A stretch of DNA of 64,000 nt, taken from NCBI GenBank assembly GCA_004431415.1, contig QPMI01000479.1:62001-126000 (forward strand). The letters are read 5' to 3'. The position numbers and the translations under genes are program-made. This DNA comes from Cyanophora paradoxa CCMP329. Its lineage: Eukaryota > Plantae > Glaucophyta. Below, one piece after another: positions 10,001 to 64,000 of this stretch; within the stretch, counting starts at the first letter, position 1, and every line of letters starts with the position of its first letter. A model generated the notes under the pieces. The model searched no databases, was not told the origin of the DNA, and saw only the letters and a program-made list of their open reading frames with translations.

Positions 10001-11726
10001 GATCTCAGAGGAAAGAGAGAGCGGGGCGGGGAAGATCCGGAAGCAGGGATGCAGATCCGCCGGGCATGATAAGGAGGCGGAGACAGGAAGAGAGGAGAGG
10101 AGAAGGGGGCTAGTGACAGGGATCCAGAACCGCTCGCCGTGCTCTCTCTAACTCTAAAGCTCTGCATCTCAGGCACACGGAATCTCGAGCGCAGGCACCT
10201 TGACGACGCTCTGGATGTCCGGGAGGATTCCGTTGATGAGGGAGCCGAGCTTCGCCTCGTCCTTGTTCTTCGAGGCCGCCATCCTCGTCGCGAACTCCTC
10301 CAGCTCGACCACGTTCGTGCAGACCTGGCGCAGGACAAGAAATGAGATGGAGGAAGGGGAGACGAGGAAGGGCGGGGCCGTCTCCGCGGAGGAAGGGGGG
10401 AGGAAGGGGTCCCGCGGACCGTCTCCCACTGCCCGGGGTCCTTGAGCTTCTTCGTGCGCCCGACGTACGTCGGCTTCGTCTCGCGGAAGAGCCAGCAGCG
10501 CATGTCGCAAGTCTCGTCCTCGTCCTCGTCTGGAGGCGAGCCGAGGCGACGTTAGGGGGCGGGCGGCTGGAGCGCCGGCGCCCCGTCCCTTCCCTCTTTC
10601 TCACTCACCGCCGAAGTGGTAGTACACACTCCCGTCCGCATCGTTTCCTATCGGTTCCACGCGCTGAAGAGAAGGAGAACGCGTTAGCTGAAGTCGCGGG
10701 GGCAGGCGTTCACACGGGGGGCCGGGCGCACCAGGGAATCCATCGCCTCCTTCTCGCAGAGGTCGATGTGCGCCCGGACCTTCTCGTTGCGGTCCATGCA
10801 CCACTCTGTGAGCGCGCGGAGCACGGCGAGCTGCGTACGGGAGCGGGCACGCGTCGGCGGCGGCGGCGGCGGCGGCGGGCGCGGGGAGGGGTGGGTCGCG
10901 GCAGGCGGGCGAGGGCGGCGGAGCACGCACCCGCTTGCGGTAGGAGAGATCGAAGATGTGCCGCGAGGCCGTCGGGTTCTCCTCGAAGTACTCGAACCAG
11001 TGGTTGTTCATCCAGCGCCGGAAGAAGAGTTCCCAGTCGTCCCTACGGCACGCCCGGTCGGCGATCGCTCCGGGCGAGCCGGCCGCCGCGTGAATGGCCA
11101 TGGGGAAGCTTGCGCGTGCGCACCCGGTCCTCCCGTTCGGGTTGATGCCGCGCAGTAGCTTGTGGATCAGTTTGGGGGCCAGCGGCGTGGATTTCGGCTC
11201 CAGCACGATCCGCTCGAAGTCCTGCGCAAATGGGGAGACACCGGGCGTCAGCGGGGGACACAAGCGGAGCACACGGCGTTGATCGAGGTCGCCCAGGTCG
11301 GCGGGGGGCGGGTCGGACTCGATGCGCCCGCGCCGGCGAGCCCCGCCGCAGCTAGGAATCGCCGGGTCCAGTCGACAGGATTCCGCGCAACCGCGCGCAC
11401 CTCCACGCGGAACGTGGGCAGGTCGAGCGGCCCATGGAGTAGTCGCAGCAGATAGCAAGCGGAGGCCACATCCGGCATACGCCGCAGCGCATCGAGCTTG
11501 TCTTCCGATGTTTCATCTACGTCGCTTGATGGCTCGACGGGCGGAGGGGGTTCCGGGGCTGCGCGAAGGTCAGGGCCGCGAGACTCGCCGCCGCGGGCTC
11601 ACCATCCCCTTCGTCCTCGGGCTCCTCCTTCTCGGATTCCCGCTTCTCATCATCGCCGCTCTCGCTCTTGCTGCTCGCGACCTCCTCCGCCTCCTCGTCC
11701 TCGCTCGTCGCGCTGCGCTTCGCCAT
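7005..11726 (-). CDS. DDT-WHIM1-WSD domain chromatin protein (ISWI-partner type, DDR4/RSF1/CECR2-like), multi-exon
   Basis: Spliced motifs LRRMPDVASACYLLRLLHGPLDLPTF / DFERIVLEP..PKLIHKLLRG (DDT), LSYRKR|LAVLRALTEW (WHIM1), RVEPIGNDADGSVYYHFG..WETVCTNVVELEEFA (WSD-like), then charged and Pro/His/Gln-rich tail. 3' end uncertain. Confidence 0.75.
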
Positions 11727-45017: not shown

Positions 45018-48000
45018 ATGTCGGGTCCGGGCTCCTCTCGCGACCAGGTGAGCGCAGCTTTCGGCTGCACTTTTCGCGCGATTCGCATCCGAAGCGCGAA
45101 ATCCGTCTGCAGAATGCAAGGCGGGCGCCGCCTGCACCGGTACCATCGAGTACGAGTGACAGCCAGGAGCAGCTGCAGCTGCAGCTGCACCAACTACAGC
45201 AGCACGCCATCTGTCTCAAGGATCAGATTAAGAGCTTGGAGGGCAGCCTGCAGCGAGAACAGCGCTGGGCCGACGAACTTGAGCGAAAGCTGAACGTAAC
45301 AGAGACGCAAGCTCGCAATCAGTCCAAGCGAGCATCGGATGAGGCGGCAACCCGCCGGCGGGCGGAGGACAGGGCGGTAGAATTCTCGCGCCGCGCGCAG
45401 GGGGCCGAAGCAAAGCTGGCCGACGCCTACAAGGATCTTCGCGCGGAGCGCTCGTCGGCTGTGGTCGACGCCAAGATCGCCAAGGAGGAGCTGGACAAGG
45501 CGAGGACAGAATCGAGGCAGCACCAGCTTGCCTTGAAGGCTTCGGAGGCGGCAGCCGTGGCGGCCAAGTCGGAGCAGAGGAAACTAGCGAATGACCTGGC
45601 GGCGTCGCGGGCCGCGCAGGCGGCCGCGGAGGCGGCGGCCGCGAAAGCGACGACGGAGCTGCTCCAAGCACGCTCTTCGGCCGCCGCGGAAGCTGCGTCC
45701 GCCAAGACCGCCAAGGAGGAGCTGGAGAAGGCGAAGTACCAATTGGGACTGCATGAGCTGGCGTGGAAGACTTTGAATTCCAGACTCGGCGAGGAGCGAA
45801 CGCGGCGCGAGGCGGCGGAGCGGCGCGCAGAGGAGGCGGAGGCGGCGGCCGCGGCGGCGAAGGCGGAGCTGGCGAAGCAGGCGGAGGACCTGGCGGCGGC
45901 GCGGGCGGCCGCGGACGAGGCGAAGTCGCTGCGGGGCGGGTGGAGGAGGCGGAGGCGGTGGCCGCGCGCCTCGCGGCGGAGCTGGAGATCGCGCGGGCCG
46001 CGATGGCGCTCCGCGAGGAGCGGGGCGCGGCGCGGGCCGCGCGACCCTCCGCGGCCGAGACCCGCCGCCGGGCGATCTCCGTCTCTCCGCCCCGGGCAGG
46101 CGAGGCTCGCGGAGTCCCCGAGGTGCGCTGGGGAGCCAGAGAGTTCATTAGCAACTGCCATATCTAATTCTGTTAGTTCATATCGATATCTAATTTATTC
46201 TGTCTCACCGATCATTATTTGCAATTGCAGGTCGTGGATCTCGACACTCCGGCCAAGCCGGCACCCGTCGTAGCGAATTCGAAGCGGCTCAGCGTGTCGC
46301 TGCGTCTGCGCGAGCCGATGCCGCGGGCGTCGATGTCGCGGGCATCGTTTTCGCGGGCGTCAGTCTCGCGGGCATCATTTTCGCGGGCGTCGATTTCGCG
46401 GGCGCTGGTGAGCGCTTCGGAGATCCCGCCGGCTCTGTCTCTCTCGCGCACGCAGCTGACTTCAGCTTGTCGACAGCGGAGCAGCATCCGAGGCGAGAGC
46501 CCTTCGCGCCGCGAGCGGCCGCGAGCATCCAGCGCGGACCGGGGGCCGGCGGCGGGGCCCCGCGGGCGCCTGAGCGCCATCCCGGCATCGCCCGCGGCCG
46601 CGCGAGACGGATCGCGATCGGGCAGCCCGCGCAGCTGCGTCTGCTGTACCCCGAGCTCGAAGGCGTCCGCGGCCGGCGCCGGCGCCGGCGCCTGCGGCAA
46701 AGTAGACCCGACCCATGGCCAGTGCCCCCGCCCGGTCCAGCCGGCGCCGGCGCTCGCCGCGCTCGAGCTCGAGCTCGAGCTCGGCGAGCTCGAGTCGACG
46801 CCTGTTCGGCCGGCCCGCGCGCGCTCCGAGGCGCCTGAGGCGACGCCGGCTCGCGATCGGCCAGCGCCGGCGCCGCCCGCGGCTGCGGCGGCGGCGGCGG
46901 CGGCGGCGAATTCGAATGCGCATGCGGAGAGGCCGAAGCGTCCGCGCTCGAGCCCGCCGGCGGCCGGCCGCCACCGCTCCGTTCTTTTCGCGGGGAGCGA
47001 GCCCGATCGCGGGGCGCCGGTCCGCGTTCAGCCGGCGGCGTCTGCGGCGGCGTCTGCGGCATCGGCCCCGCTGGCGTCGCCCGCGGTCGTCCAGGAGCAG
47101 AAGCGCCGGCGGCGGCGGCACTCTTCCGTGTCGCCGCCCCGCGGCGCCGGGCGGAAGCTCGATCGCGACCGCGACGCGGAGCGGGAGCGGGAGCGGTCGC
47201 GGGAGGAGCGGCGGCGGCGGCAGGCGCGGATGAGCGCGCGGGAGTGGCGCGAGGAGCTGGATCGCCTCTTCGCGCTCGAGCTGGAGGACCGCACGCGGGC
47301 CGAGTGGCTCGCGAGCGCCCTGGAGCGGCAGCGCGAGGCCGAGCGGCGGCTCGCCGACCTCGAGGAGCGATGCCGCAGGGACCACTTCCCCGCACTGTGC
47401 GCGCGGCTCCTAATTTCTTCCAAGCTTCAACTTTCTTAAATTTATTCGCGCCTCTCATTCTCTCCATATATGCATTGATTGATACATGGTCGCAAAACCC
47501 CTATCGTGATATCGATGACCCTCGAGCTCGCGATATCGATGACCTCGCGATATCAGCTTAACCTCTCTTGAATTTCTTAGCGCAACTCATTAATGTTCTC
47601 TTAACGACCTCGCAGGTACCGGTACTACTACGACATGCGCGGGATGATCAACCGCCCGAACGAGGCCCGAGCTCGCGCCGCCACCGCCCCCGGCCCGGCC
47701 CCGCCTCGACCCTCGCCTTAAATTTCGCGGCGCAGGACGAGGGCACGATCTACGTCCTCCTGGACACCAACGTCTACCTGCACGAGGAGAAGGTCCGCAA
47801 TTGCAAGTCCCGGCACCGGTTCGGCCGAGCCGCTGGAAACAGCTGCGCGTGGGGAGGGGGGCAATATGATTTCTTATCTTCGACTCCTGCCTGGCCGGAC
47901 CTATCCGAGCAAATGTAATTTGGTTTTTGAGAAGGCCGCCAGGTCCGCGAGTGGGAGCGGCTCCTGCGCTACGCCGCCCGCGGCGTCCTCCTCATCGTCC

Positions 48001-50405
48001 CCCGCGTCGGTGCGGTCTTTTACATCTACCTGATCGTGATCGTGAACCTAGGTGTACATGTGTCCCGCGCGCGAATTCGATCCCGCGGCCGATCGATCCC
48101 GCGAAATCAAACTATAGCTAAACGCGGTCGGCCGCGTCCTGTCGGCCCGGCCTCGAATGCAGTGGAGAAGGAGCTGGACAAGTACCGCCAGAAGGCGTAC
48201 ATCAGCACCAACCCCCGCGAGCGCGAGGCGGTCCGCTCTCTCGATCTCCAGATCTAAATTTGATTTCGATGACCCTAGATTTGATCTAGATCTAGATCTA
48301 GATCTGAATTAATATTTGCGGATTCGAATTATAGCTGGAGGTTGAAAGCACCCACGATTGATCACGGATTCAATGTATATGTACCTCCTGCAGGCGTGCC
48401 TAGCTATAGATCCAAGATACCTCCCGCTCCCTAGATCAAGATTTAATTCGATCTGGATCTAATTCGCCTCGGGCAGGCGTGCCGGGCGGTGGCGGTGATC
48501 CAGGAGCACATGGCGGGGGGCCGGGCCTTCCCCGCCCTCCGCGTCGCCCTCCCCCACGAGCAGGTGCCCGCGCGCGCTTCAAAAGCTTAAGATAGGTCAA
48601 TGGGTAAAAAGATAGGTCGAAGTCAAAGATAGGCGCGGTGCCCCTTCGCGCCCAGGCCTTGAGGTCGAAACTTAAAGACAGGAGGCCTGGGCCGTTGTCC
48701 CGAGCCCCCGGCCCCGCCCCTCCTGAAGCCCTCCCCCACGAGCAGCTGGCGGTGGCCGTCGACGCCGGGCGCCCCCGCAACAGGTCAGCCTCCCGATCGG
48801 GCAGCAGCTTGCTCGACTCGTCGAGCCCGAGCGCGCCTAGTTGTCTACTTTAAGCTTGCCCCTGCAGGGGTGGGTAGCCTATAGCTAAAGCCTCATGATT
48901 GATATCATATAAGGCGGAAGCTTAAGGGCCCGGGGCGCTGCTCGAGCTCGCTCGACTCGTCGAGCGCTCTACCCGACCCTCTAACCTCGCCCGGCGCGCC
49001 CGGCCCGGCCCGCGTGCGCGCGCAACAGCGACGACCTCATCGTCGACACCGCCGCCTACTTCGCCGCCGTGCGCAACGAGCCACTCCGCCGACACGCGCG
49101 CATCTGGTCTGGTCTAGAGAGCGCACGGCGGCGATTCCCCCGGCCCTCCCATGGCCCTCCCTCCCCACCCTCGCCTCCCCCGATATCGATTCCCCCCGCT
49201 CACCTACTTTAAATTAAATCCCTCGAGCTCGCTTCGCTCCTACACCGCCGCCTGCTTTGAATTTGCCGCCGTGCGCTATAGCTCGCGACTGGCTTCACTT
49301 GCGATCGGAATCATAAAACCTAGCTATAGCGCGCGGAGCTTAAGAATTTATAAATCACGCATATCTGACAGGCATTCGAATTCAGATCGCGGCGTCGCCG
49401 GGGCACGTTCTTCTTGTTACATTCGACAAGGTGCGGCCGTGCGAGGGGGCCGGGGGGGCGCCGGCGGGCTGACCATGAGCGCTACCTATTTCTCTGGACA
49501 CGTTATAATTAACCGGGGCCAATCACCCGAATTTCGCATGGGATGTTCAACTGATCATGAGCGGGGGGGCGGTCTAGCTATATATAGATGCGGGCGATCT
49601 AGATCTGAGCGCTAGCTTCCCTCTAGATCTAGCCATGGACCAGGTAGTCGACTGCAGCTGGCCATGGTCGACGTCTCGCGATATATAACACCGATCGGAG
49701 GCTCATGATCATGACCGGCGGCTTTGATTTTCGAATTCGCCGCAGGGGATGTTCAACCGGGCGGCGGCGGCCGGCCTCCGCGCCGCCCCCGAGCTGCGGA
49801 GGGCGATGGCCGACCTCGGCGCCGTGCGCACTTAAGCTTCGAATTCGAATTCGAATTCGATCTCGGAAATTAAATTGCAATCGATCTAGATGCATGATCA
49901 TGAACTATAATTAGCTTCTATATTATTCGATTATCATGGCATGCGCACTGCGATTTAGCTGCTGCCTGTACTCGGAAATTAAATTGCAATCGATCTATAT
50001 GCATGATCATGAACTATAATTAGCTTCTATATATATAATTCGATTTTAAACTGCAAATTGCATTCGATCGTATATTCATAGCAAGCATGCAATAGCTCAT
50101 AAATTACGCGCTGCGATTTAGCTGCTGCCTGCGCGCGCTCCGATTCGCCATCGACGTCGACGCAAATTGCGATGCTTAATCAACCTATATGCATTAATAA
50201 GCTTCGATTTCATAAGATATTAATATTAATATTGCGAATTGCAATCGATGACATAAGCGTCAATTAATCAATATATATATATATACGTACGCGTGTACTC
50301 CCTACTCCCTGCGCTAACGCCTGCGCGATTCCGCCGACATCGATGCAGGTGGTCGACCGGTGGTCGATGGCGACGGAGGATCGTCGCGGGATGCTCCTCC
50401 CGTAG
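45018..50405 (+). CDS. Long coiled-coil protein with C-terminal PIN ribonuclease domain (Swt1/SMG6-like PIN), multi-exon
   Basis: In-frame splice DHFPAL|YRYYYD links the coiled coil to exons YVLLDTNVYLH, LIVPRVVEKELD, NSDDLIVDTAAYF, VLLVTFDK|GM (D,E,D,D). Needs one extra G in the run at about 45935 (probable homopolymer error). Confidence 0.7.
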
Positions 50406-50583
50406 CTATATTATATAAAGGGCGCAATTGAGGTTGCATTGCCTTCTAGGTTCCCTAAACATGAGCCCAGGAGAACCTGAAATGCGAAACCCGAATTTGA
50501 ATTCATGCATCGAATGAAGCATATATATATACGCATTGCGCATGCCGCTGCAATTCGCAAGTACGGCGAGATCCTGCTAAAGA

Positions 50584-51205
50584 TCAATTAGTATTGTGAG
50601 GACTCCCGCATCCCCCCCCCCCCCCCCCCCCCCCCCCCCCGCCTTCCGAGAACCTGGCCCGTGCAGCCGCCTCAGATCTAGATTCTAGATCTAGATTGTC
50701 GCGGCACCCGGATTCCGTCGGAAGCACGTCCTCGTCGCGCCACAGGTACATCTTGATGATGTCCGACACACTCCTAGAGTCTGGCGCGCAATTTAATCCC
50801 AGCACGCATCCTGGCGTCCCGCTGTTGTTCGCGCGCGCTCGCGATCGGAATCAGCTTCTCAGGTGATCGGTCGGAAGGGCACGTCACGTATACGTAGAAC
50901 ATTGGTATGTGTGCCGTGGTACCCCGGTGTGCCAATGTGATGTCCACTTTTAATTTGCAAAAACAAAAAAGGAATCAGCTTCTCAGGGTCGCGGGCGATA
51001 ATGCACAGGATCGAGATTAAGATATCGATGCAGACCTGAGTAGCCGAGATGCCATCCCGGAGAAGCTCCTCGAGCGTCGGCCAGTCCGGATCCCGGAGCC
51101 GCAAGAAACTTCTCCTGCAGGCCGTTACTAATTATAAGTTATCTCCGAGTCGAGGTGCAGAATGAAGTAGCTAGACCATTTCTCGAAGCCGCCAGGGCAG
51201 GACAT
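50584..51205 (-). CDS. Small hypothetical spliced gene
   Basis: GT-AG joins keep the frame: MSCPGGFEKW|RSFLRLRDPDWPTLEELLRDGISATQ|WTSHWH..CST|GTPGCVLGLNCAPD..PTESG. No homology recognised. Confidence 0.3.
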
Positions 51206-51580
51206 CTAGATCTTGAGGTCCGCTGAGGCTATAGCTAGAGGTGTCGATCGCGCGATATCGATCGCGTGCGCGATATCGATCGCGAGCTCTTATGTATATA
51301 ATTAATTATAAGCTTCCGGAACAGAAGCTTCAGCGCTGAGGTATACGTACGTGCGCTTCGCCGAGGCGAACAGAAGATCGCGCCCTGCTGCAAGTTAAAA
51401 TTATAATTACCCGTATTATGGGCCGTATACGCGTAGCCGGCGCACTGCGGCACTGCCGCACTGGCCCAGTGGCGGCAGTGCGGCACTGCGGCACTGCGGA
51501 TCGAAGGGGGTAGGGGTAGGGGGTGGCCCGCCCGGCCCCAATTGCAAAAGCGAAACTGACGTATAAACGGACCAGAAGAG

Positions 51581-51675
51581 ACACATATTGAAAAACGAAT
51601 TTAAATCCCTCGTTCATCTCGATCGCTTCGCGATCTCGATTCACTCTGGATTTAAATTCGTTTTTCAATATGTGT
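51581..51675 (-). repeat. 95-nt terminal imperfect palindrome (hairpin), copy 1
   Basis: 28-bp perfect arms 51581-51608 / 51648-51675, a 12+12 partly paired segment, GATCGC/GCGATC stem and 3-nt loop. Confidence 0.95.
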
Positions 51676-51996
51676 TAATTTAACTACTAAAATACATATT
51701 TATCGATTAATTTCTTTAACTTTTTATGCAAACTTTGTATAAATTAATGCAAACTTTGTATTAAAAATGATAAACGCGTTTAATTTAATGCATATTCACG
51801 ATTGATTCGATCGATATTATATCGATATATTATGTTCTTTGTCGATTACATATATAACTTCGATTGATTAACATTAAACTACTTAAAGAACGATATAATC
51901 GCGATTAATTCGCATAAATTCGCATAAATTCGCATAAACTCGATATATCTCTCTGGTATTGAAGTAGACCACCGCCCATTCTGTATCGAAAAACGC

Positions 51997-52260
51997 AAAA
52001 AGTGTCACAGAGTTGCATCATGTCCAATTAAACAATCGATGGAATTGCGGATTTACATTTTTGCACCGAAAAAGTGTCACAGAGTTGCATTATGTCCAAT
52101 TAAACAATTGAAGAGATTGCGCGATTTTCTATTGGAATATATCGGAACTGCATCACGTCCAATTAAACAATCGATGAGATTGCGGATTTACATTTTTGCA
52201 CCGAAAAAGTGTCACAGAGTTGCATGGTCTCCAATTGATCAATCGATTAGATTGCAGATG
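51997..52260. repeat. Subterminal imperfect tandem repeats (about 63-72 bp, four cores)
   Basis: Recurring aaaaagtgtcacagagttgcat..tccaattaaacaatcgat..attgc; repeated at about 58778-59040. Confidence 0.85.
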
Positions 52261-52368
52261 TTCTATAAAACAGAATAAATGAAATCAAGTGTGACAGATA
52301 GTATTCAAATGATATTCAGTAAGATATATTTCTGTTTTTGAGAAGAGTAGTAAGGGGGGCAGAATGTC

Positions 52369-52804
52369 TGTGACGCCTGTGACGGCTGTGACGCCTGTTT
52401 TCAGAAGTCTGTCATTTTTGAAAATTTTAAAAAGTTTGAAAGTAGGCGTCACAGGCGTCACAGGCGTCACACTCAATTAATTTAGGTGTCACAGCGAAAT
52501 TGCAGACCATTTCCAGTAAGACAACTTCGCATTTTCGGAAAGGTGGATTAATGGATAGTGTTTTGTAGGTGTCAGAGGTGTCACAAGACGGATTTCAGTA
52601 AGACAAGAATATATTTTTGAATATCTCAGTAAGAGAAAGAGATTCCATTTTTAATTGGGTGTGACGCCTGTGACGGCTGTGACGGCTGTTTTAAGAAGTC
52701 TGTCATTTTTGAAAATTTTAAAAAGTTTGAAAGTAGGCGTCACAGGCGTCACAGGCGTCACAGTCAATTAAAGAGGCGTCACAGTCAATTAAATAGGTGT
52801 CACA
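52369..52804. promoter_or_regulatory. Duplicated inverted iteron-like array (putative replication origin), copy 1
   Basis: TGTGAC at 52369/52378/52387, AT-rich spacer, GTCACA at 52448/52457/52466. The module is repeated 291 bp later (52660-52762) with extra GTCACA at 52778 and 52799. Confidence 0.6.
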
Positions 52805-52863
52805 CCCGATTATCTGACCATTTTCAGTAAGACCATCTGAAATTCTGAATTTCTCAGTGTCAA

Positions 52864-53265
52864 CTAACTCGGAAATCGCAATACTCTATGTTTCTCCGAT
52901 TTCTCCAACCCTGAAAACACACCTGTTATTCTCTCATCTATCTCATGAGATACTCTCGTGGTTTTCCTCTCTGCTTCTAATCCACAACTGAATATATCAA
53001 TCGCCAACATACCTTCATTTGAGTAACAATGAGCAGTGCAATGGCTCTCATCCAGCAGAAGAACCATTGCAAAACCAGGAGGAGAAATACCACCATCGAA
53101 AATCTCGCAATGCTTGTGAACTACTCGAATACCTTGCTCTTGAATAATAGTTTGCAAGAACTGCATTAACCACCTGGTTGTTGTCTCCAAGTCCTCCATT
53201 CCTACTGCTAATTGGGTTCTGAATTTGTAATCCAGCATCACATGGAAACCTCGATGAGTATTCAT
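52864..53265 (-). CDS. speD: S-adenosylmethionine decarboxylase proenzyme, short prokaryotic/viral class 1B type
   Basis: 133 aa; GFAMVLLLDESHCTAHCYSNEGMLAIDIFSCG matches the ESH self-cleavage (pyruvoyl) motif and the D.F.CG motif. Confidence 0.88.
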   Translation of the reverse strand: MNTHRGFHVMLDYKFRTQLAVGMEDLETTTRWLMQFLQTIIQEQGIRVVHKHCEIFDGGISPPGFAMVLLLDESHCTAHCYSNEGMLAIDIFSCGLEAERKTTRVSHEIDERITGVFSGLEKSEKHRVLRFPS

Positions 53266-53305
53266 TTATGAATAATTTAGAAAAATTAAAAACGCGAATG
53301 GTAGA

Positions 53306-53455
53306 ATGCGAACCATCTTAGCAAGAGTGCTACCTTATGAGTTGGTGGATATCATTCTGCTGCACTACCACAAGACCTGTCCCAGCTGCTTTGACACATG
53401 CATAATCACAAAGGGAAAATGGGGAAAGATTCTCATTTCTCTCTCAAAGATCTAA
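53306..53455 (+). CDS. 49-aa ORF with F-box-like LPxELxxxIL start and CxxC
   Basis: MRTILARVLPYELVDIILLHYHKTCPSCFDTC..; fills the gap between neighbours and its TAA overlaps the TAG of the convergent gene. Below the ORF-track cutoff. Confidence 0.5.
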   Translation: MRTILARVLPYELVDIILLHYHKTCPSCFDTCIITKGKWGKILISLSKI

Positions 53456-53724
53456 TCGAAATATAATACTACTGGTTTATCATCTATCACGATTCCTGAT
53501 GTCGTCTTTTTTCTATATGCATGAGAGGATTTCTTGTTGCATTCTCTGCATCCACTTCCCCTTACATGATTAAATGGGTAGGTTTGCAGGATCTTGTTGC
53601 ATTTAAGGCATCTAACAGAGACCTTCTCTTGTGCTTTCTTATAGACTGTCTCACTATAATCGAATTTAGCATCACCATGAACCATCATTGCAGATTCTAT
53701 GAATTTCTTTGTTTTATCATCCAT
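53452..53724 (-). CDS. Stand-alone Zn-ribbon protein (DUF723/CapR-like module of viral homing-endonuclease-type proteins)
   Basis: FIESAMMVHGDAKFDYSETVY..KVSVRCLKCNKILQTYPFNHVRGSGCREC. Confidence 0.7.
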   Translation of the reverse strand: MDDKTKKFIESAMMVHGDAKFDYSETVYKKAQEKVSVRCLKCNKILQTYPFNHVRGSGCRECNKKSSHAYRKKTTSGIVIDDKPVVLYFD

Positions 53725-53753
53725 CCCTCTCTCTATATATATACCTGAGATTT

Positions 53754-54583
53754 CTATGGAGCAGTATCCTGTCCGAAAATGGGGAAGTAGCGATTTGTGC
53801 CGTAATATTCTGCATATGTATTCTGTTTTGCAATAGCATCGGTTCTCTCAGCATAGAGAATGCATTTGTAGATACCAAACCTGGTGGCTCTCACCAAGAA
53901 CTGGTAATCTTCAAGACCGAAATTCACTCCATGATAAGCAATTCCGAAATTGTCATATGGCGTGATCACAACTGCAATATTTGGGGTTCCACCCTCTACT
54001 TGACAGACAGCATAAACATCTGGTGGGATATCGACAACCACCTTGTAGTGGTCACCAATCTCAACAAGAGAATCAACTACTGATGTCTGCTCATTCACAA
54101 CAATTGGGAAGATCTTGATAATATATGGTGCATTCATACTGGGGACATAGGTGCGAATTCTGGTGTTGGGATCAATGGGATTGGGTTGATCATTTACGAA
54201 AAGAGGCGCACCAACAGCTCCACCAATCCGAAGACCATCACCAATATATGCTCCCCCGTTTTGCAGTTAATAGCTCCCGACCGAGATTCAAAAGAATAAG
54301 TAGAAAGAGGATCACCATAACTGTCTGGGTCTCCATAGTGGGCAGAAAAGTTTGCATTTGTGACAAGGAGTTTCGTTGTCTTAACTATACCATTATTTTT
54401 ATCACACCTGAGTTCTTGCAATCTCAGTTTGTGGGTGGAACCAAATGTATTCATTGTGGGTTGCACTTCTGTGGATTGGAGACCTTCTACATCATCAAAG
54501 GTAGCATGCTGCAAAACGTGATTTGCAGGTGCTGCTAATGAGAGTTGGGGTGTAATAATTCGTTCTGGTATTGGGGCAGCCAT
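53754..54583 (-). CDS. Putative virion protein A (276 aa), split here by a 1-nt homopolymer deletion near 54253
   Basis: Intact in copy 2 (60533-61363); C5 versus C6 run. Paralogous to the adjacent 291-aa ORF. Confidence 0.65.
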
Positions 54584-54584
54584 T

Positions 54585-55460
54585 TTACATTAAAGTGATA
54601 TATAATTTATGGGTTGGGTCATCAATCACATCTGGTTCCTGGTAAAACCCTGTTGTGAAGATATCTGCAACGTTTACCCCTCGAAGTGCCGAAACAGCTG
54701 CTATATCTGTCCTCAGTCCCATAATCATAGTATTGTAAACTCCAACCTCAGTTACAAACAAATCATAGGTAAATGTCAAATTGTTATAAACACAATATCC
54801 TCGACCGAAATGGTTTGATGCTTGAACAAAGAATAGGTAATTATGACCTGTTTGATTGTTGTTTGCTCTGCACATAGATAGCATTGCTGTGGGAAGCGGA
54901 ATATTTCTTCTTACTCGATCAGTTCCTGTTATAATAACCAATTCCGAATTTTCAAGAGTGACAGAGGAAGCAACATAGAAATGTAGAAAAGGTTGCTGTG
55001 CAACTGGTGTATAGAAACGTATTCGTTGGGGATTCTCTACATTTTGTTCAAGAGTATCTGGGACATCATTATACGAAATGGAGGATGAGAGTTGACCTGA
55101 CACTCTGCAACCTCCCCCAATAAATGCTCCTCCTGATCTCACAGTAACAGCAGCAGTATTCTTATCGAAATCAAGGGCTTTTAAATCTACACTGTATGCA
55201 TCAGGACCTCCATTTGTCGGTTGAAAGAAGTTAGCATTTGTTACAAGTAGTCGTGTGGTTTTAACTACACCCGAATTCTTATCGGCTCGGAGTTCTTTTA
55301 CACGAATCATCGAGTTTTTATCAAAGGAGTTACCATTAGAATTGGGTCTCTCTGTGGATTCTAAACCGCGAACTTCATCATTAACTTCATGTTGTCGAAA
55401 GTGCATAGCTGGCGATCCAAGCGAATAAATGGGCAGTTGAACTCGATTGTATTCACCCAT
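54585..55460 (-). CDS. Putative virion protein B (291 aa), paralog of protein A
   Basis: Shares ELRxDKNxGxVKTTxLLVTNANF and GGAxIGxGxRxxG with protein A. Its stop abuts the next ATG. Differences between copies are mostly synonymous. Confidence 0.7.
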   Translation of the reverse strand: MGEYNRVQLPIYSLGSPAMHFRQHEVNDEVRGLESTERPNSNGNSFDKNSMIRVKELRADKNSGVVKTTRLLVTNANFFQPTNGGPDAYSVDLKALDFDKNTAAVTVRSGGAFIGGGCRVSGQLSSSISYNDVPDTLEQNVENPQRIRFYTPVAQQPFLHFYVASSVTLENSELVIITGTDRVRRNIPLPTAMLSMCRANNNQTGHNYLFFVQASNHFGRGYCVYNNLTFTYDLFVTEVGVYNTMIMGLRTDIAAVSALRGVNVADIFTTGFYQEPDVIDDPTHKLYITLM

Positions 55461-55509
55461 TGCTTCTTTTACTAAGAAGGATAGAAAAATAAAGGAGAAT
55501 CTAAGTTAA

Positions 55510-58361
55510 TTATGGTATTCCATATGCTGTCCAATGGATTGTGCAAGTGATACTACGACTTTCAGATAGAGTAGGGGATGCTATGAATGTCACATAAATT
55601 GTTGTATATGTAGATGTGGAGTTTGAGATTCCAATTCTAAAATCTACATCCCCGGGGTTTGTTGCAGGAGTTCCTTGAAGAGTGGCATTTACAACAGGTG
55701 TTTGTGTGTAAAAAGCAGGATTCCAATTTAAAACATATGCATGCTGTGTTCTCTGACCCGCGCTTATCACACCACTTGTAGCTTCGTATTTTCCTGATTT
55801 GAAACGTCTTTCTATATCAGACCAAGTTGGAAGTTGGCTAATTGTATTGGTGGTTCCCGAATTCATTGCATAAAATGCTCTTGCATAAGCATTTCCGCGA
55901 CAGAGTAGGGTTTTATCATAGAAGTTTGCTGAATTGTGGAAGAACCAAGTTTCCTCATTTGTAGGCGATGCAGGGGCTACTATTTGACCTGATCCTACAT
56001 ACATAGTATTATTTGCAGTGATTGTATTGGCTGTGAATGGGTCTAAACTTGGGAGATCTGTGATTTCTGATTTAGTATGAGTATGGGCGAAATCTGTAAT
56101 ATTTGCCTTTGTGTGAGTATGGGCAAAGTCGGTGATATCTGATTTAGTGTGAGAGTGAGGTCCGACAGTTGTAGAAGCTGTTGGTTTCCCATAAATGTTA
56201 TCCCAATGCAAGAAGCCGCTATGTGAGGATACAGTGGGGTTCTTGCTCCAACCTACAAGACCCACAAGGTAAATCCTTCCTATTCGCCCTTGAACACCCA
56301 CTTTACTCAGCCCTTCACAATTCACTCCGACATATTGCCTATACTCTACACTTGGGTCACTACCAGGAGAATAAGCATTTACTCTCGAAAGTGTATAAGA
56401 ATTCGTTGATGGATAAACTCCCACAACATCGAAGTATCTGCTATTATATTGACACACATAGAAGATATAGCATGTTTTCATTCCCGCAGGGACAGTCCAT
56501 AACATCTTGTAGCCACTACAATCTTCATCACCAGAAGCCCATGTGTTTGCTCCTGAGTAAGGAGATATAAATGTGAAAAATCTCCAATCGCCTGTGCGAT
56601 CTGTTGAAAGACCATTTGTGGCATCAAAGTTGATGGGGGATGTGTATGTTGGTTTATTTATCAGATCATCGTAATTTCCTGTCGTTGCAACAGTTGCAAG
56701 ATTAGGTCTATCTGTGATATTTGACCAAGCATGAGTATGGGTTGCAGGAGGGAATGTTAAAGGTTTATCTGTGATATTGTTCCATGCATGACTGTGAGTT
56801 TGAAGTGCAACACCCAATTCGGTTTCATCTATATAATTTTTGCTTTGCAGGTAATCGTCTGTGACCACACCTGAAAGGGTCTCGTTGTGCAGGTTTTTAG
56901 CCGCCATTCTCTGATTGGCTTCAATAGCCCCACCTGATAGCGTTTTAATCCAAGCGATCTCAGCTTTACTGTAATTATCAGTTGGTTGCCCAACAAGTGG
57001 AATATAATTGAGTTTATCCCGAGTGAAAACTATCTTAGGTCTTGATCCATCCAAGCTGCTTACATCTGTCACATTCACATGGACAGCTGCTGAGAAGTCT
57101 TGATAACCCGCAGGATTGGAGGGAACACCGAACCCATCCTTTGGAATATCGTTTTTGTAATAGCTTGTCACATAGATATTCGGGAAAGTGTCACCCGGGT
57201 TAACATACGCCATATCTTGCACTCGGAATTGAGGCAAGCTTCGGACAAATAGAGGTCCTGTCATTGCACTGCCCGCATCAGCCCCTTTGAGGTGAACATA
57301 ATGCTCATTCAAAATAGTTCTTTCCGCAATATTGCAGGATTTATAAAGGGAAACCCCATATTCACAGGTTCGACCTTTGAGAATTCAGGTTGGTTATTGA
57401 TCTCATCCCATGTATGCTCATGGGTTGCAGGTGGGAATATTGAAGGTCTATCTGTGATATTCGACCAAGCATGAGTGTGGTTTTGTATCCATCCCTGCAC
57501 CACATTGGATGTTGTGTAGTTTGGAATTATAGCGTTTGAACCTACTATTAAATTTTTAATGTGGACATAGTCAGAAGAAATTCGCAGATTTTCGGGATAA
57601 TAAAGCGATTGCGTTTTTGGGAAGCCGTAATAATCCTGAATATAGTATCTCACCCTTTGCTTCTCTTCAAACGTTAATGCTCTATTGAAAATGATGTATT
57701 CGGCTATATCACCTATGAAATAGTTAACACCCATCCTACTGAAAGTTGAAGGTGGAAGGTAATTTGTTCCTGTAAAGGTTCCTACATCTTGTCCTCTGAT
57801 TCCAAAGGTTATGCTGTTTGAAGTTATGGTGGTGTCCCAATAATTAGCTGAATAATTATTGGGGATGAACTGTGACTGAGGATTTGTATTAACAGGAAGC
57901 CCATCCATTCTCATTGTTAAAAGGCATTTCGGTGTGGTTTTGGCAGGGTCAGTGTTGGAAGTAATGGGGTAATAGGGTGGATCATAGTAGACATCGATTT
58001 CTGTATTTCCGTCTCCTATTTTCAGCTTTCCCTTCACATTCAGGTTACATGTAACTGTAAGATTGCTACCAATCCAAGCGGATCCTGTGTTGCTACTGTT
58101 TATTGATTTCACTGTTCCATGCACATCCAAATTACTTGTGGTAAGATTGCTTGTTATAATAAGATTTCCATCTATTGTTCCCCCTGATTTTGGCAAGTAG
58201 TTGTTGAGCCACCCTAATGTAACATTACTACTTGTGAGAGGAGCCAAGAGTTCGTTTAATGTAGCTGCACTCACCTTCGAGACAAGCCATCCCTGAACAG
58301 TATTTGAAGAGGTTAGAGGAGCTATTTGAGCATTCACAGTTGCTGTATCAGCCTTAGTAGC
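55510..58361 (-). CDS. Phage-tail-fibre-like protein, 5'-truncated; ORFs 57309-58367 and 55510-57312 are probably one gene
   Basis: YLPKSGGTIDGNL; LamG-like YFIGDIAEYIIFNRALTFEE; repeats H.HAW.NITD.P and HTHTK..ITD; C-terminal F..TPVV.ATL...IHWTAYG (H-type-lectin-like tip). Confidence 0.75.
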
Positions 58362-58456
58362 ACACATATTGAAAAACGAATTTAAATCCCTCGTTCATCT
58401 CGATCGCTTCGCGATCTCGATTCACTCTGGATTTAAATTCGTTTTTCAATATGTGT
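58362..58456 (-). repeat. 95-nt terminal imperfect palindrome, copy 2
   Basis: Identical to 51581-51675. Confidence 0.95.
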
Positions 58457-59149
58457 TAATTTAACTACTAAAATACATATTTATCGATTAATTTCTTTAA
58501 CTTTTTATGCAAACTTTGTATAAATTAATGCAAACTTTGTATTAAAAATGATAAACGCGTTTAATTTAATGCATATTCACGATTGATTCGATCGATATTA
58601 TATCGATATATTATGTTCTTTGTCGATTACATATATAACTTCGATTGATTAACATTAAACTACTTAAAGAACGATATAATCGCGATTAATTCGCATAAAT
58701 TCGCATAAATTCGCATAAACTCGATATATCTCTCTGGTATTGAAGTAGACCACCGCCCATTCTGTATCGAAAAACGCAAAAAGTGTCACAGAGTTGCATC
58801 ATGTCCAATTAAACAATCGATGGAATTGCGGATTTACATTTTTGCACCGAAAAAGTGTCACAGAGTTGCATTATGTCCAATTAAACAATCGATCAGATTG
58901 CGGGATTTTCTATTGGAATATATCGGAACTGCATCACGTCCAATTAAACAATCGATGGAATTGCGGATTTACATTTTTGCACCGAAAAAGTGTCACAGAG
59001 TTGCATGGTCTCCAATTGAACAATCGATTAGATTGCATATGTTCTATAAAACAGAATAATTGAGATCAAGTGTGACAGGTAGTATTCAAATGATATTCAG
59101 TAAGAGATAGTTTTGTTTTTGAGAAAGTCAGTAAGAGGGGTGGAATGTC

Positions 59150-59585
59150 TGTGACGCCTGTGACGGCTGTGACGCCTGTTTTCAGAAGTCTGTCATTTTT
59201 GAAAATTTTAAAAAGTTTGAAAGTAGGTGTCACAGGCGTCACAGGCGTCACACTCAATTAAATTAGGTGTCACAGCGAAATTGCAGACCATTTCCAGTAA
59301 GACAACTTCGCATTTTCGGAAAGGTGGATTAATGGATAGTGTTTTGTAGGTGTCAGAGGTGTCACAAGACGGATTTCAGTAAGACAAGAATATATTTTTG
59401 AATATCTCAGTAAGAGAAAGAGATTCCATTTTTAATTGGGTGTGACGCCTGTGACGGCTGTGACGGCTGTTTTAAGAAGTCTGTCATTTTTGAAAATTTT
59501 AAAAAGTTTGAAAGTAGGCGTCACAGGCGTCACAGGCGTCACAGTCAATTAAAGAGGCGTCACAGTCAATTAAATAGGTGTCACA
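59150..59585. promoter_or_regulatory. Inverted iteron-like array, copy 2
   Basis: Same TGTGAC x3 / GTCACA x3 double module. Confidence 0.6.
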
Positions 59586-59644
59586 CCCGATTATCTGACC
59601 ATTTTCAGTAAGACCATCTGAAATTCTGAATTTCTCAGTGTCAA

Positions 59645-60046
59645 CTAACTCGGAAATCGCAATACTCTATGTTTCTCCGATTTCTCCAACCCTGAAAACA
59701 CACCTGTTATTCTCTCATCTATCTCATGAGATACTCTCGTGGTTTTTCTCTCTGCTTCTAATCCACAACTGAATATATCAATCGCCAACATACCTTCATT
59801 TGAGTAACAATGAGCAGTGCAATGGCTCTCATCCAGCAGAAGAACCATTGCAAAACCAGGAGGAGAAATACCACCATCGAAAATCTCGCAATGCTTGTGA
59901 ACTACTCGAATACCTTGCTCTTGAATAATAGTTTGCAAGAACTGCATTAACCACCTGGTTGTTGTCTCCAAGTCCTCCATTCCTACTGCTAATTGGGTTC
60001 TGAATTTGTAATCCAGCATCACATGGAAGCCTCGATGAGTATTCAT
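59645..60046 (-). CDS. speD: AdoMet decarboxylase proenzyme, copy 2
   Basis: Protein identical to copy 1; two synonymous differences seen. Confidence 0.88.
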   Translation of the reverse strand: MNTHRGFHVMLDYKFRTQLAVGMEDLETTTRWLMQFLQTIIQEQGIRVVHKHCEIFDGGISPPGFAMVLLLDESHCTAHCYSNEGMLAIDIFSCGLEAERKTTRVSHEIDERITGVFSGLEKSEKHRVLRFPS

Positions 60047-60086
60047 TTATGAATAATTTAGAAAAATTAAAAACGCGAATGGTAGA

Positions 60087-60236
60087 ATGCGAACCATCTT
60101 AGCAAGAGTGCTACCTTATGAGTTGGTGGATATCATTCTGCTGCACTACCACAAGACCTGTCCCAGCTGCTTTGACACATGCATAATCACAAAGGGAAAA
60201 TGGGGAAAGATTCTCATTTCTCTCTCAAAGATCTAA
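60087..60236 (+). CDS. 49-aa F-box-like/CxxC ORF, copy 2
   Basis: Identical to 53306-53455. Confidence 0.5.
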   Translation: MRTILARVLPYELVDIILLHYHKTCPSCFDTCIITKGKWGKILISLSKI

Positions 60237-60505
60237 TCGAAATATAATACTACTGGTTTATCATCTATCACGATTCCTGATGTCGTCTTTTTTCTATATG
60301 CATGAGAGGATTTCTTGTTGCATTCTCTGCATCCACTTCCCCTTACATGATTAAATGGGTAGGTTTGCAGGATCTTGTTGCATTTAAGGCATCTAACAGA
60401 GACCTTCTCTTGTGCTTTCTTATAGACTGTCTCACTATAATCGAATTTAGCATCACCATGAACCATCATTGCAGATTCTATGAATTTCTTTGTTTTATCA
60501 TCCAT
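60233..60505 (-). CDS. Zn-ribbon (DUF723-like) protein, copy 2
   Basis: Identical protein to copy 1. Confidence 0.7.
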   Translation of the reverse strand: MDDKTKKFIESAMMVHGDAKFDYSETVYKKAQEKVSVRCLKCNKILQTYPFNHVRGSGCRECNKKSSHAYRKKTTSGIVIDDKPVVLYFD

Positions 60506-60532
60506 CCCTCTCTCTATATATACCTGAGATTT

Positions 60533-61363
60533 CTATGGAGCAGTATCCTGTCCGAAAATGGGGAAGTAGCGATTTGTGCCGTAATATTCTGCATATGTAT
60601 TCTGTTTTGCAATAGCATCGGTTCTCTCAGCATAGAGAATGCATTTGTAGATACCAAACCTGGTGGCTCTCACCAAGAACTGGTAATCTTCAAGACCGAA
60701 ATTCACTCCATGATAAGCAATTCCGAAATTGTCATATGGCGTGATCACAACTGCAATATTTGGGGTTCCACCCTCTACTTGACAGACAGCATAAACATCT
60801 GGTGGGATATCGACAACCACCTTGTAGTGGTCACCAATCTCAACAAGAGAATCAACTACTGATGTCTGCTCATTCACAACAATTGGGAAGATCTTGATAA
60901 TATATGGTGCATTCATACTGGGGACATAGGTGCGAATTCTGGTGTTGGGATCAATGGGATTGGGTTGATCATTTACGAAAAGAGGCGCACCAACAGCTCC
61001 ACCAATCCGAAGACCATCACCAATATATGCTCCCCCCGTTTTGCAGTTAATAGCTCCCGACCGAGATTCAAAAGAATAAGTAGAAAGAGGATCACCATAA
61101 CTGTCTGGGTCTCCATAGTGGGCAGAAAAGTTTGCATTTGTGACAAGGAGTTTCGTTGTCTTAACTATACCATTATTTTTATCACACCTGAGTTCTTGCA
61201 ATCTCAGTTTGTGGGTGGAACCAAATGTATTCATTGTGGGTTGCACTTCTGTGGATTGGAGACCTTCTACATCATCAAAGGTAGCATGCTGCAAAACGTG
61301 ATTTGCAGGTGCTGCTAATGAGAGTTGGGGTGTAATAATTCGTTCTGGTATTGGGGCAGCCAT
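60533..61363 (-). CDS. Putative virion protein A, intact copy
   Basis: Uninterrupted 276-aa ORF. Confidence 0.7.
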   Translation of the reverse strand: MAAPIPERIITPQLSLAAPANHVLQHATFDDVEGLQSTEVQPTMNTFGSTHKLRLQELRCDKNNGIVKTTKLLVTNANFSAHYGDPDSYGDPLSTYSFESRSGAINCKTGGAYIGDGLRIGGAVGAPLFVNDQPNPIDPNTRIRTYVPSMNAPYIIKIFPIVVNEQTSVVDSLVEIGDHYKVVVDIPPDVYAVCQVEGGTPNIAVVITPYDNFGIAYHGVNFGLEDYQFLVRATRFGIYKCILYAERTDAIAKQNTYAEYYGTNRYFPIFGQDTAP

Positions 61364-61386
61364 TTTACATTAAAGTGATATATAAT

Positions 61387-62241
61387 TTATGGGGTTGGGT
61401 CATCAATCACATCTGGTTCCTGGTAAAACCCTGTTGTGAAGATATCTGCAACGTTTACCCCTCGAAGTGCCGAAACAGCTGCTATATCTGTCCTCAGTCC
61501 CATAATCATAGTATTGTAAACTCCAACCTCAGTTACAAACAAATCATAGGTAAATGTCAAATTGTTATAAACACAATATCCTCGACCGAAATGGTTTGAT
61601 GCTTGAACAAAGAATAGGTAATTATGACCTGTTTGATTGTTGTTTGCTCTGCACATAGATAGCATTGCTGTGGGAAGCGGAATATTTCTTCTTACTCGAT
61701 CAGTTCCTGTTATAATAACCAATTCCGAATTTTCAAGAGTGACAGAGGAAGCAACATAGAAATGTAGAAAAGGTTGCTGTGCAACTGGTGTATAGAAACG
61801 TATTCGTTGGGGATTCTCTACATTTTGTTCAAGAGTATCTGGGACATCATTATACGAAATGGAGGATGAGAGTTGACCTGACACTCTGCAACCTCCCCCA
61901 ATAAATGCTCCTCCTGATCTCACAGTAACAGCAGCAGTATTCTTGTCGAAATCTAGGGCTTTCAGGGCAACACTGTAAGCATCAGGACCTCCATTTGTAG
62001 GCTGGAAGAAGTTAGCATTGGTGACAAGAAGTCGAGTTGTTTTAACCACACCAGAATTCTTATCAGCTCTCAGCTCTTTTACTCGAATAATCGAATTTTT
62101 ATCAAAGGAGTTACCATTGGAATTGGGTCTCTCTGTGGATTCTAAACCACGAACCTCATCATTTACTTCATGCTGGCGAAAATGCATTGCAGGGGATCCA
62201 AGGGAATATATAGGCAGTTGAACTCGATTATATTCACCCAT
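61387..62241 (-). CDS. Putative virion protein B, copy 2
   Basis: ATG at 62241 by comparison with copy 1. An extra G near 61391 changes the last residues. Confidence 0.7.
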   Translation of the reverse strand: MGEYNRVQLPIYSLGSPAMHFRQHEVNDEVRGLESTERPNSNGNSFDKNSIIRVKELRADKNSGVVKTTRLLVTNANFFQPTNGGPDAYSVALKALDFDKNTAAVTVRSGGAFIGGGCRVSGQLSSSISYNDVPDTLEQNVENPQRIRFYTPVAQQPFLHFYVASSVTLENSELVIITGTDRVRRNIPLPTAMLSMCRANNNQTGHNYLFFVQASNHFGRGYCVYNNLTFTYDLFVTEVGVYNTMIMGLRTDIAAVSALRGVNVADIFTTGFYQEPDVIDDPTP

Positions 62242-62290
62242 TGCTTCTTTTACTAAGAAGGAAAGAAAAATAATGCGAAATATGCATTTA

Positions 62291-64000
62291 TTATGGGATT
62301 CCATATGCTGTCCAATGGATTGTGCAAGTAATACTTCGACTTTCAGATAGAGTAGGGGATGCTATGAATGTCACATAAATTGTTGTATAGGTAGATGTGG
62401 AGTTTGAGATTCCAATTCTAAAATCTACATCCCCGGGGTTTGTTGCAGGAGTTCCTTCAAGTGTGGCAGTTACAACAGGTGTCTTAGTGTAAAAAGCAGG
62501 ATCCCAATTCAAAACCTGTGCATGCTGTGTTCTCTGACCTGCACTTATAGCACCACTGTAAGCTTGAAATTTTCCTGACTTAAATCGTCTTTCTATATCA
62601 TACCAAGTTGGAAGTTGGCTAATTGTATTGGTGGTTCCCGAATTCATTGCATAAAATGCCCTTGCATAAGCATTTCCTTTGCAGAGCAAGGTTTTATCAT
62701 AGAAGTTTGCTGAATTGTGGAAGAACCAAGTTTCCTCATTTGTAGGCGATGCAGGGGCTACTATTTGACCTGATCCTACATACATAGTATTATTTGCAGT
62801 GATTGTATTGGCTGTGAATGGGTCTAAACTTGGGAGATCTGTGATTTCTGATTTAGTATGAGTATGGGCGAAATCTGTAATATTTGCCTTTGTGTGAGTA
62901 TGGGCAAAGTCGGTGATATCTGATTTAGTGTGAGAGTGAGGTCCGACAGTTGTAGAAGCTGTTGGTTTCCCATAAATGTTATCCCAATGCAAGAAGCCGC
63001 TATGTGAGGATACAGTGGGGTTCTTGCTCCAACCTACAAGACCCACAAGATAAATCCTTCCTATTCGCCCTTGAACACCCACTTTACTCAGCCCTTCACA
63101 ATTCACTCCGACATATTGCCTATACTCTACACTTGGGTCACTACCAGGAGAATAAGCATTTACTCTCGAAAGTGTATAAGAATTCGTTGATGGATAAACT
63201 CCCACAACATCGAAGTATCTGCTATTATATTGACACACATAGAAGATATAGCATGTTTTCATTCCGCAGGGACAGTCCATAACATCTTGTAGCCACTACA
63301 ATCTTCATCACCAGAAGCCCATGTGTTTGCTCCTGAGTAAGGAGATATAAATGTGAAAAATCTCCAATCGCCTGTGCGATCTGTTGAAAGACCATTTGTG
63401 GCATCAAAGTTGATAGGGGATGTGTATGTTGGTTTATTTATCAGATCATCGTAATTTCCTGTCGTTGCAACAGTTGCAAGATTAGGTCTATCTGTGATAT
63501 TTGACCAAGCATGAGTATGGGTTGCAGGAGGGAATGTTAAAGGTTTATCTGTGATATTGTTCCATGCATGACTGTGAGTTTGAAGTGCAACACCCAATTC
63601 GGTTTCATCTATATAATTTTTGCTTTGCAGGTAATCGTCTGTGACCACACCTGAAAGGGTCTCGTTGTGCAGGTTTTTAGCCGCCATTCTCTGATTGGCT
63701 TCAATAGCCCCACCTGATAGCGTTTTAATCCAAGCGATCTCAGCTTTACTGTAATTATCAGTTGGTTGCCCAACAAGTGGAATATAATTGAGTTTATCCC
63801 GAGTGAAAACTATCTTAGGTCTTGATCCATCCAAGCTGCTTACATCTGTCACATTCACATGGACAGCTGCTGAGAAGTCTTGATAACCCGCAGGATTGGA
63901 GGGAACACCGAACCCATCCTTTGGAATATCGTTTTTGTAATAGCTTGTCACATAGATATTCGGGAAAGTGTCACCCGGGTTAACATACGCCATATCTTGC
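62291..64000 (-). CDS. Fibre-like protein, copy 2 (partial; 1-nt deletion near 63263 splits the ORF)
   Basis: ttccgcagg versus ttcccgcagg in copy 1; otherwise colinear, with a variant C-terminal tip. Confidence 0.72.

Follow-up and report, generated by a model that had tools for sequence, protein, structure and literature searches.

Palindrome-ended endogenous virophages (subtypes 1, 2, 5 and 6) and a Polinton-like virus (PLV; subtype 4) have been described in Halocafeteria seosinensis (10.64898/2026.07.28.741278). According to the accessible text of that preprint, the terminal palindromes adjoin target-site duplications (TSDs), 14 elements (5 PLVs and 9 virophages) are nested, and hairpin priming is proposed, untested. 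A giant endogenous virus of Chlamydomonas, the punuivirus, has exact ACC..GGT ends and 6-bp TSDs (10.1101/2024.09.03.611062); neither 'hairpin' nor 'palindrom' occurs in the accessible part of its text. Giant-virus ends have been outlined as a hairpin followed by tandem repeats and then genes (PMC12085832). For endogenous PLVs, Table S6 of PMC12220804 gives the AdoMet_dc gene in 66/156 of its Glaucocystophyceae row, and also in 10/177, 17/57 and 45/706; the same Glaucocystophyceae row has rve in 85 and tyrosine recombinase in 0. As far as that source is accessible, it also describes PTR fibres in PLVs, including one PTR-PTR-H-lectin with a C-terminal H-lectin, and TSDs that accompany the rve types. 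The words 'hairpin', 'palindrom' and 'nested' are absent from PMC10120064, and PMC13236599 concerns a different system with a recombinase and a telomere-resolvase.

The element described here, from Cyanophora paradoxa, resembles the Halocafeteria PLV and virophages, as far as these are described in the accessible text, in having a palindrome at the extreme end of the integrated element, many copies and nesting. However, its palindrome is 95 nt long with a bulged, asymmetric top, against 52 nt in Halocafeteria, so that the orientation is readable here, and its nested element is a 98% sister copy, unlike those of Halocafeteria. The TSD, a non-pPolB replicase and an rve integrase are known for the Halocafeteria elements and unseen in the present one. 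With the punuivirus, as described in the accessible part of its report, it shares precise ends starting with AC, as well as several insertions and shortened relics, but the punuivirus is 617 kb long, has TIRs of 10.8-14.8 kb and has a 6-bp TSD shown. As in the endogenous PLVs of PMC12220804, judged from the accessible text, a low-GC island in a high-GC host carries an AdoMet_dc gene and a PTR-type fibre, and an H-lectin-like fibre C-terminus is possibly common to both; the main text of that paper is without 'palindrom', unlike the palindrome-ended element here. Precise hairpin ends and nesting are already known from endogenous PLVs and virophages; the fixity of orientation described below may be new.

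The element ends precisely at the foot of a hairpin

The window is the whole 64,000-nt stretch of C. paradoxa CCMP329 DNA that we analysed; coordinates refer to positions in it (Table 1). The original prediction placed both junctions exactly at the base of a hairpin stem, and this was upheld by self-alignment, by the fold and by the matching first bases. Positions 58362-64000 aligned with 51581-57220 at 97.98% identity, and the alignment ended at that first base. The same bases open both copies at 51581 and 58362, and the left flanks of the two junctions are unrelated (5/20 matching bases). The stem foot is the position of both junctions, and the fold of the terminal 95 nt has a z of -11.2, which 0/200 shuffles equalled. 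The GC content per kb changed from 0.50-0.77 over 1-51000 (0.57-0.77 over 1-50000) to 0.35-0.42 from 52001 to the window end.

Table 1. Features of the element and its junctions, in window coordinates
Feature	Positions	Strand	Basis
Junction 1 (host DNA / first base of copy 1)	51580..51581	.	Self-alignment and GC drop
Copy 1: the element's left 6,781 bp, up to the cut in the fibre gene	51581..58361	+	
Terminal hairpin of copy 1, 95 nt: perfect 28-bp stem and bulged 39-nt top	51581..51675	+	
Subterminal repeats: a 10-bp tandem repeat, direct repeats of 135 and 291 bp, and two imperfect inverted repeats	51904..52833	+	
S-adenosylmethionine (AdoMet) decarboxylase, 133 aa	52864..53265	-	Pfam PF02675 E 6e-11, above cut-off; 54 homologs
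90-aa zinc-finger protein, like a phage endonuclease repeat module	53452..53724	-	PF14311 E 3e-4 (below cut-off); phrog_681 E 7e-11
276-aa gene, split between two frames in copy 1 but whole in copy 2 (60533-61363)	53754..54583	-	
291-aa gene, matches no known family	54585..55460	-	Pfam, homolog, Atlas and PHROG searches
Divergent patch (copy 2: 61945-62689), 82/112 differences	55164..55908	.	
Fibre gene, 3' part, PTR-like phage-tail repeats; 5' part absent	55510..58361	-	Pfam, PHROG, run contigs
Fibre ORFs in the window (600 aa and 352 aa)	55510-57312 and 57309-58367	-	
TTAGTAG, within the fibre gene, no use in the joint	58354..58360	+	
Junction 2 (fibre gene / first base of copy 2): 1 shared base, 0 extra bases	58361..58362	.	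Exact X17 contig
Terminal hairpin of copy 2, same sequence as that of copy 1; gives a false ATG	58362..58456	+	
Copy 2, continues off the window end	58362..64000	+	

The stretch 50000-58700 is contained in 20 of 22 public runs, all of one organism and dating from 2012, 2019 and 2024. Broken reading frames and contigs totalling 25-124 million letters per run point to a unicellular eukaryote. We analysed loose ends in the contigs of three of them (X2, X11 and X17). Among 15 of the 16 loose-end entries, five (six contigs) have foreign DNA before 58362, 58361 or 58360; the offsets at 58361 and 58360 are as expected if one or two bases match the flank in the window by chance. Four left flanks could be read cleanly and are mutually different and GC-rich like the host, and another entry mixes two contigs. 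A flank of the right arm follows 58456-58460 in all three runs, on an 8.2-kb contig in X11. No start within the stem was found among these 15 of 16 entries, the sole internal ones being a loop variant. Counting the two window junctions, the four left flanks and the right-arm flank, at least 7 distinct junctions lie at the stem foot, and no ragged ends appeared among them, in keeping with the defined terminus that had been claimed.

The hairpin contig has a depth of 2852 in X11, against 71-84 for host-flank contigs, and of 1875 against 56 in X17. These ratios correspond very roughly to ~33-40 hairpin ends, as contig depth does not measure copy number. With the flanks joined at the foot and none in the stem, they support a precise, sequence-defined terminus of a multi-copy family. 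In four runs the depth of the AdoMet decarboxylase region is 0.50-0.75 of that at the terminus, which hints at ~20 elements with a hairpin at either end; PLVs are 14-40 kb long and have terminal inverted repeats. The copies are dispersed, with exact ends and a GC content unlike that of the host, as is characteristic of an endogenous PLV. No TSD pair, of 5-6 bp in rve types, was found by eye among the 7 junction flanks, which are few of the ~33-40 ends.

A variant loop of a short CG-rich repeat sits on the same stem (58392, 58427) in a minority of members in all three runs.

Copy 2 interrupts the fibre gene of copy 1

It is very improbable that junction 2 is an assembly chimera between two repeat copies. 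The one-base homopolymer differences of the window at 54252, 56483 and 57353 are typical of long-read assemblies, and the junction is listed in neither X2 nor X11, being found in one of the three runs. In X17, however, an exact 56-bp contig (58333-58388) spans it at a depth of 56, like that of single loci; on shared contigs X11 is ~1.3-1.5x deeper than X17. The contig has 29 and 27 letters on either side of the joint, under the 31-letter threshold, and its ends at 58333 and 58388 are those predicted for this branch by a k=31 graph. A mis-join of repeats would moreover fall in shared sequence, whereas merely one base is common here. The graphs of X2 and X11 drop minor branches: a variant accounting for 960 of 4560 in X2 is missing from X11. 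That these two runs do not list the junction is thus not proof of its absence. X17 may come from the same strain or sample as the window. A second X17 contig, of depth ~23 and seen in the depth table only, begins at the same branch point, 58333.

The original prediction further held that junction 2 cuts the fibre ORF, whose apparent ATG would come from the hairpin, and the contigs of all four runs bore this out. Past 58360-58362 the intact fibre gene enters another 78-bp repeat unit and not the hairpin (4/4 runs, and again 3/3); copy 2 therefore truly cuts the gene, and the ATG of the ORF at 57309-58367, which lies in the hairpin, comes from it. Base 58362 is the only overlap of fibre gene and hairpin, and nothing is added. 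At 57353 the window is one base short of the contigs of 4/4 runs, and no stop codon closes the frame of the 600-aa ORF from 57351 on, so the two fibre ORFs are likely one gene of over 950 aa.

In Pfam, the fibre matches PTR below the cut-off, and PHROG tail fibres are matched at E 3e-9. The fibre search gave 3,129 matches, mostly to short repeats; there was no longer form of the 352-aa ORF among 7,982 homolog candidates and no locus related to either fibre ORF in viral contigs. The nearest Atlas cluster to the C-terminus scores 0.87, and H_lectin occurs in 10% of its members; we take an H-lectin-like C-terminus as a lead only. Pfam gave no match for the C-terminal part alone, and the predicted fold of the C-terminus has a pLDDT of 37. 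Across 55632-58355 the depth declines and contig joints skip 318-722 bp, indicating that family members differ in the number and type of fibre repeats. Judged by depth, this fibre type is present in about 4-6 of ~20 copies.

The motif TTAGTAG beside junction 2 had been paired with CTACTAA just inside the element. Both sequences are present, the latter at 58465-58471, but a role in the joint did not stand, and we rejected TTAGTAG as a microhomology. The register of the match is off by 7 nt: one base lies between TTAGTAG and the hairpin and eight at the equivalent place in the inverted interior, so a microhomology join would look different. Neither junction 1 nor any of the four cleanly read left flanks has TTAGTAG. 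Matches of at least 7 bases also arise elsewhere, with 184 of 10,962 element 20-mers matching the inner 20 bases and 319 of 2,194 20-mers matching the terminal 119 bp.

The two copies are distinct members of one family

Next, we compared the two copies, excluding 5 end-gap rows. Of the 112 differences, none falls in the first 528 bp, 21 fall in 52109-52481 and 82 in a single patch (55164-55908). In the 291-aa gene, 35 codon changes are synonymous and 2 non-synonymous; in the C-terminal part of the fibre, likely its receptor-binding part, the numbers are 16 and 11. We conclude that the copies are a mosaic of long-separated, selected alleles and not a fresh duplication, which agrees with the proposal that the second copy is another family member and not the product of a tandem duplication. 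Over the 745 bp of the patch the two copies are 11% divergent, and elsewhere they are nearly identical.

Head-to-tail amplification of a 6.78-kb unit, or a circle of 6.78 kb, would have placed two copies in the same orientation, and the identity of the initial 528 bp, with 52482-55163 nearly identical, also fits this. Yet 82 differences in 745 bp, with the excess of synonymous changes in one gene, and a single-copy junction against 33-40 ends and ~4 intact fibre genes have already largely refuted such an array or circle, which we find scarcely credible. The repeated identical junctions that it would bring, named in advance as the case against nested copies, are not seen: the junction is single-copy and the copies have diverged.

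An apparent single orientation of the hairpin loop

The top of the hairpin (58390-58428 and 51609-51647) is asymmetric, so that flip and flop can be distinguished, and both window copies are alike. A mismatched top is also found in poxvirus hairpins, and the genome of AAV, like the element, ends at the foot of a fold-back stem. In X11 the orientation-specific 31-mer 58427-58457 has a depth of 3100 against 2852 for the loop contig, a ratio of 1.09, where a 1:1 mix of flip and flop predicts 0.57-0.62. Contigs cross the foot unbroken in X2, X11 and X17. As judged from contig depths, mainly those of one run (X11), nearly all ends appear to have the loop in the same orientation.

In the accessible literature, the flip and flop forms of AAV ITRs are about equally frequent (PMC7397707), and a cited title describes flip-and-flop ends of vaccinia, both forms being present. 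By contrast, one orientation is seen here, and near-equal shares of the two were not found by the X11 contig depth, an indirect measure. Together with the contigs unbroken at the foot, the ratio of 1.09 does not fit simple hairpin transfer.

We suggest tentatively, as a possibility rather than a probability, that this is a PLV family whose bulged terminal hairpin is fixed in one orientation at every one of ~35 ends, the same end inserting into and reshuffling sister copies. If so, the fixed orientation would rule out hairpin transfer of the AAV/poxvirus type, as implied by the priming model for palindrome-ended PLVs. It would leave asymmetric nicking at the foot, an integrase to which one isomer alone is acceptable, or a hairpin that serves as a signal for binding or packaging rather than as a primer. 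In minute virus of mice, the left end has a route that keeps the orientation.

In literature that included few subscription papers, and in the main text of the Halocafeteria preprint, we found no report of loop orientation in PLVs or virophages; 'flip' and 'orientation' are absent from that main text as far as it is accessible (10.64898/2026.07.28.741278). In its accessible text, the preprint leaves open whether terminal palindromes prime replication. An asymmetric top at ~33-40 ends in a cultured organism with many public runs offers a test case, in which orientation, exact end and TSD are countable from existing reads. If raw reads confirm a single orientation, the possible replication mechanisms would be narrowed.

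The gene set points to a Polinton-like virus

Inward from the end, the genes are those for the AdoMet decarboxylase, the zinc-finger module, two orphan paralogs and the fibre. The paralogs are the 276-aa and 291-aa genes, 33% identical, the former being split in copy 1 by a 1-bp difference in a C run at 54252. No homolog of the 291-aa protein was found among 617 candidates, its best Atlas score of 0.82 being a lead at most. No loci related to the 276/291-aa pair were found in viral contigs or metagenomes, and none related to the hairpin stem or the AdoMet decarboxylase in viral contigs. Among the ORFs of 51581-64000 there is no gene for a major (double jelly-roll) or minor capsid protein, packaging ATPase, polymerase/replicase (pPolB or primase-helicase) or integrase (rve or tyrosine recombinase). 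The window likewise has none of the hallmarks of giant endogenous viruses (PolB, NCLDV capsid, VLTF3), which exceed 100 kb in length.

Two genes, those for the AdoMet decarboxylase and the phage-like PTR fibre, match published PLV gene sets and thus favour a PLV; as accessory genes they are supportive and not defining. Judged from the genes in 6.8 kb alone, the element is likely to be a PLV.

Of 158 metagenome matches of the AdoMet decarboxylase, 80 were retained, and ORFs were examined in 8. Among these 8 of 158, the three closest loci (45-50%; L001, L002 and L003) lie on giant-virus-like contigs, where the decarboxylase adjoins Erv1 and RNase III; L001 (9998-10384) also has an NCLDV capsid. 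This suggests gene flow between giant viruses and this element. It could also be taken to mean that the copies are relics of an endogenous giant virus (Nucleocytoviricota), with a mismatched hairpin telomere of the poxvirus/chlorovirus kind that was opened at its foot and integrated in the manner of the punuivirus. The order of hairpin, tandem repeats and genes is the giant-virus end order, as far as it is described in the accessible text of PMC12085832, and punuivirus ends, in its accessible text, are likewise AC..GT. We nevertheless consider a giant virus improbable: ~20 copies with a fibre and AdoMet_dc set match published PLVs, poxvirus hairpins flip and flop whereas a single orientation is seen here, and the perfect stem ends at 28 bp and does not run on.

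Several smaller features accompany these genes. The two imperfect inverted repeats between the end and the decarboxylase gene (52369-52471 and 52650-52772; 59150-59252 and 59431-59553 in copy 2) consist of 9-bp units around an AT-rich core, and their folds have z of -10 and -12. In one frame they read VTPVTAVT...VTGVTGVT, a type of pattern that is presumably found near primase-helicase origins. A viral contig matching the 9-bp-repeat motif, L081, was rejected, since the match is inside a coding region and the contig is phage-like and without such repeats. At its end, inside the coding region, this unrelated contig carries a perfect 93-nt inverted repeat (9467-9559 and 10299-10391), probably an assembly fold-back. 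Rfam gave 12 miRNA matches, all under the gathering score, and these were set aside as generic hairpins. One-base homopolymer differences at 57353, 54252, 56483/63263 and 54610/61391 split genes in one copy or the other.

Insertion into, or joining to, a sister copy

The reading that we prefer, and hold to be moderately probable, is that the precise hairpin-capped end of a multi-copy, likely PLV element sits within a sister copy's fibre gene, where it was likely inserted by the family's own integrase; this covers insertion with or without later loss of the far junction. We infer that the terminus is enzymatic in nature. The free genome would be a linear duplex with inverted ends that start with 5'-AC at the stem foot. 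A retroviral-type (rve) integrase would join such an end to its target with little sequence preference, as at host sites, and in this case a resident copy of the same orientation would have been the target. Beyond the window there would be the far junction and, with it, the 5' part of the fibre gene, unless these were lost by recombination between long direct repeats, which would leave a 6.8-kb stub and one whole element. Recombination between direct repeats deletes the intervening DNA, and since a same-orientation insertion creates long direct repeats, it would remove exactly the far junction. Against nested insertion, the element ends in AC..GT, and the ends used by retroviral integrases are TG..CA, although the punuivirus combines ACC..GGT ends with 6-bp TSDs.

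Contig depths at the cut bear on whether the fibre gene resumes elsewhere. In X17, a depth of 288 enters the cut and depths of 205, 56 and 23 leave it, and the 131-bp contig beyond is unbroken at 205. A depth of 208-232 is expected if the fibre does not resume and one of 248-275 if it does; the value seen agrees better with the former and so tilts the balance away from a far junction that survives. Contig clean-up, in which links were pruned and variant bubbles popped, weakens this depth test. The repeat unit beyond the cut has 0, 1 and 2 differences in the three runs.

The same depths would be expected if the same precise end had been joined to copy 1 at one side and everything beyond it lost, so that the 5' part of the fibre never resumes. 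The end of the downstream copy could have attacked within its own molecule and deleted the adjacent DNA, or a free viral end could have been end-joined onto a broken copy 1, and the one-base overlap at the joint is compatible with either route. However, nested insertion followed by recombination yields the same end state, and nesting is common among palindrome-ended elements as far as the available sources describe them. Given these points and the pruned links and popped variants behind the depth values, we consider a one-ended join rather unlikely. Insertion in the same orientation into a sister copy, our preferred reading, is a possible route to the mosaic, fibre-swapped copies seen here.

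Repeats in the host DNA

Left of junction 1, the host DNA at 47400-51580 has a GC content below that of the rest of the window and many short palindromes, as well as 29 consecutive C and a direct repeat of 62 bp (49862/49971); this stretch is possibly a repetitive or decayed region. Farther away, positions 1-303 and 16977-17286 of the host DNA form a 310-bp inverted repeat pair with 85% identity.
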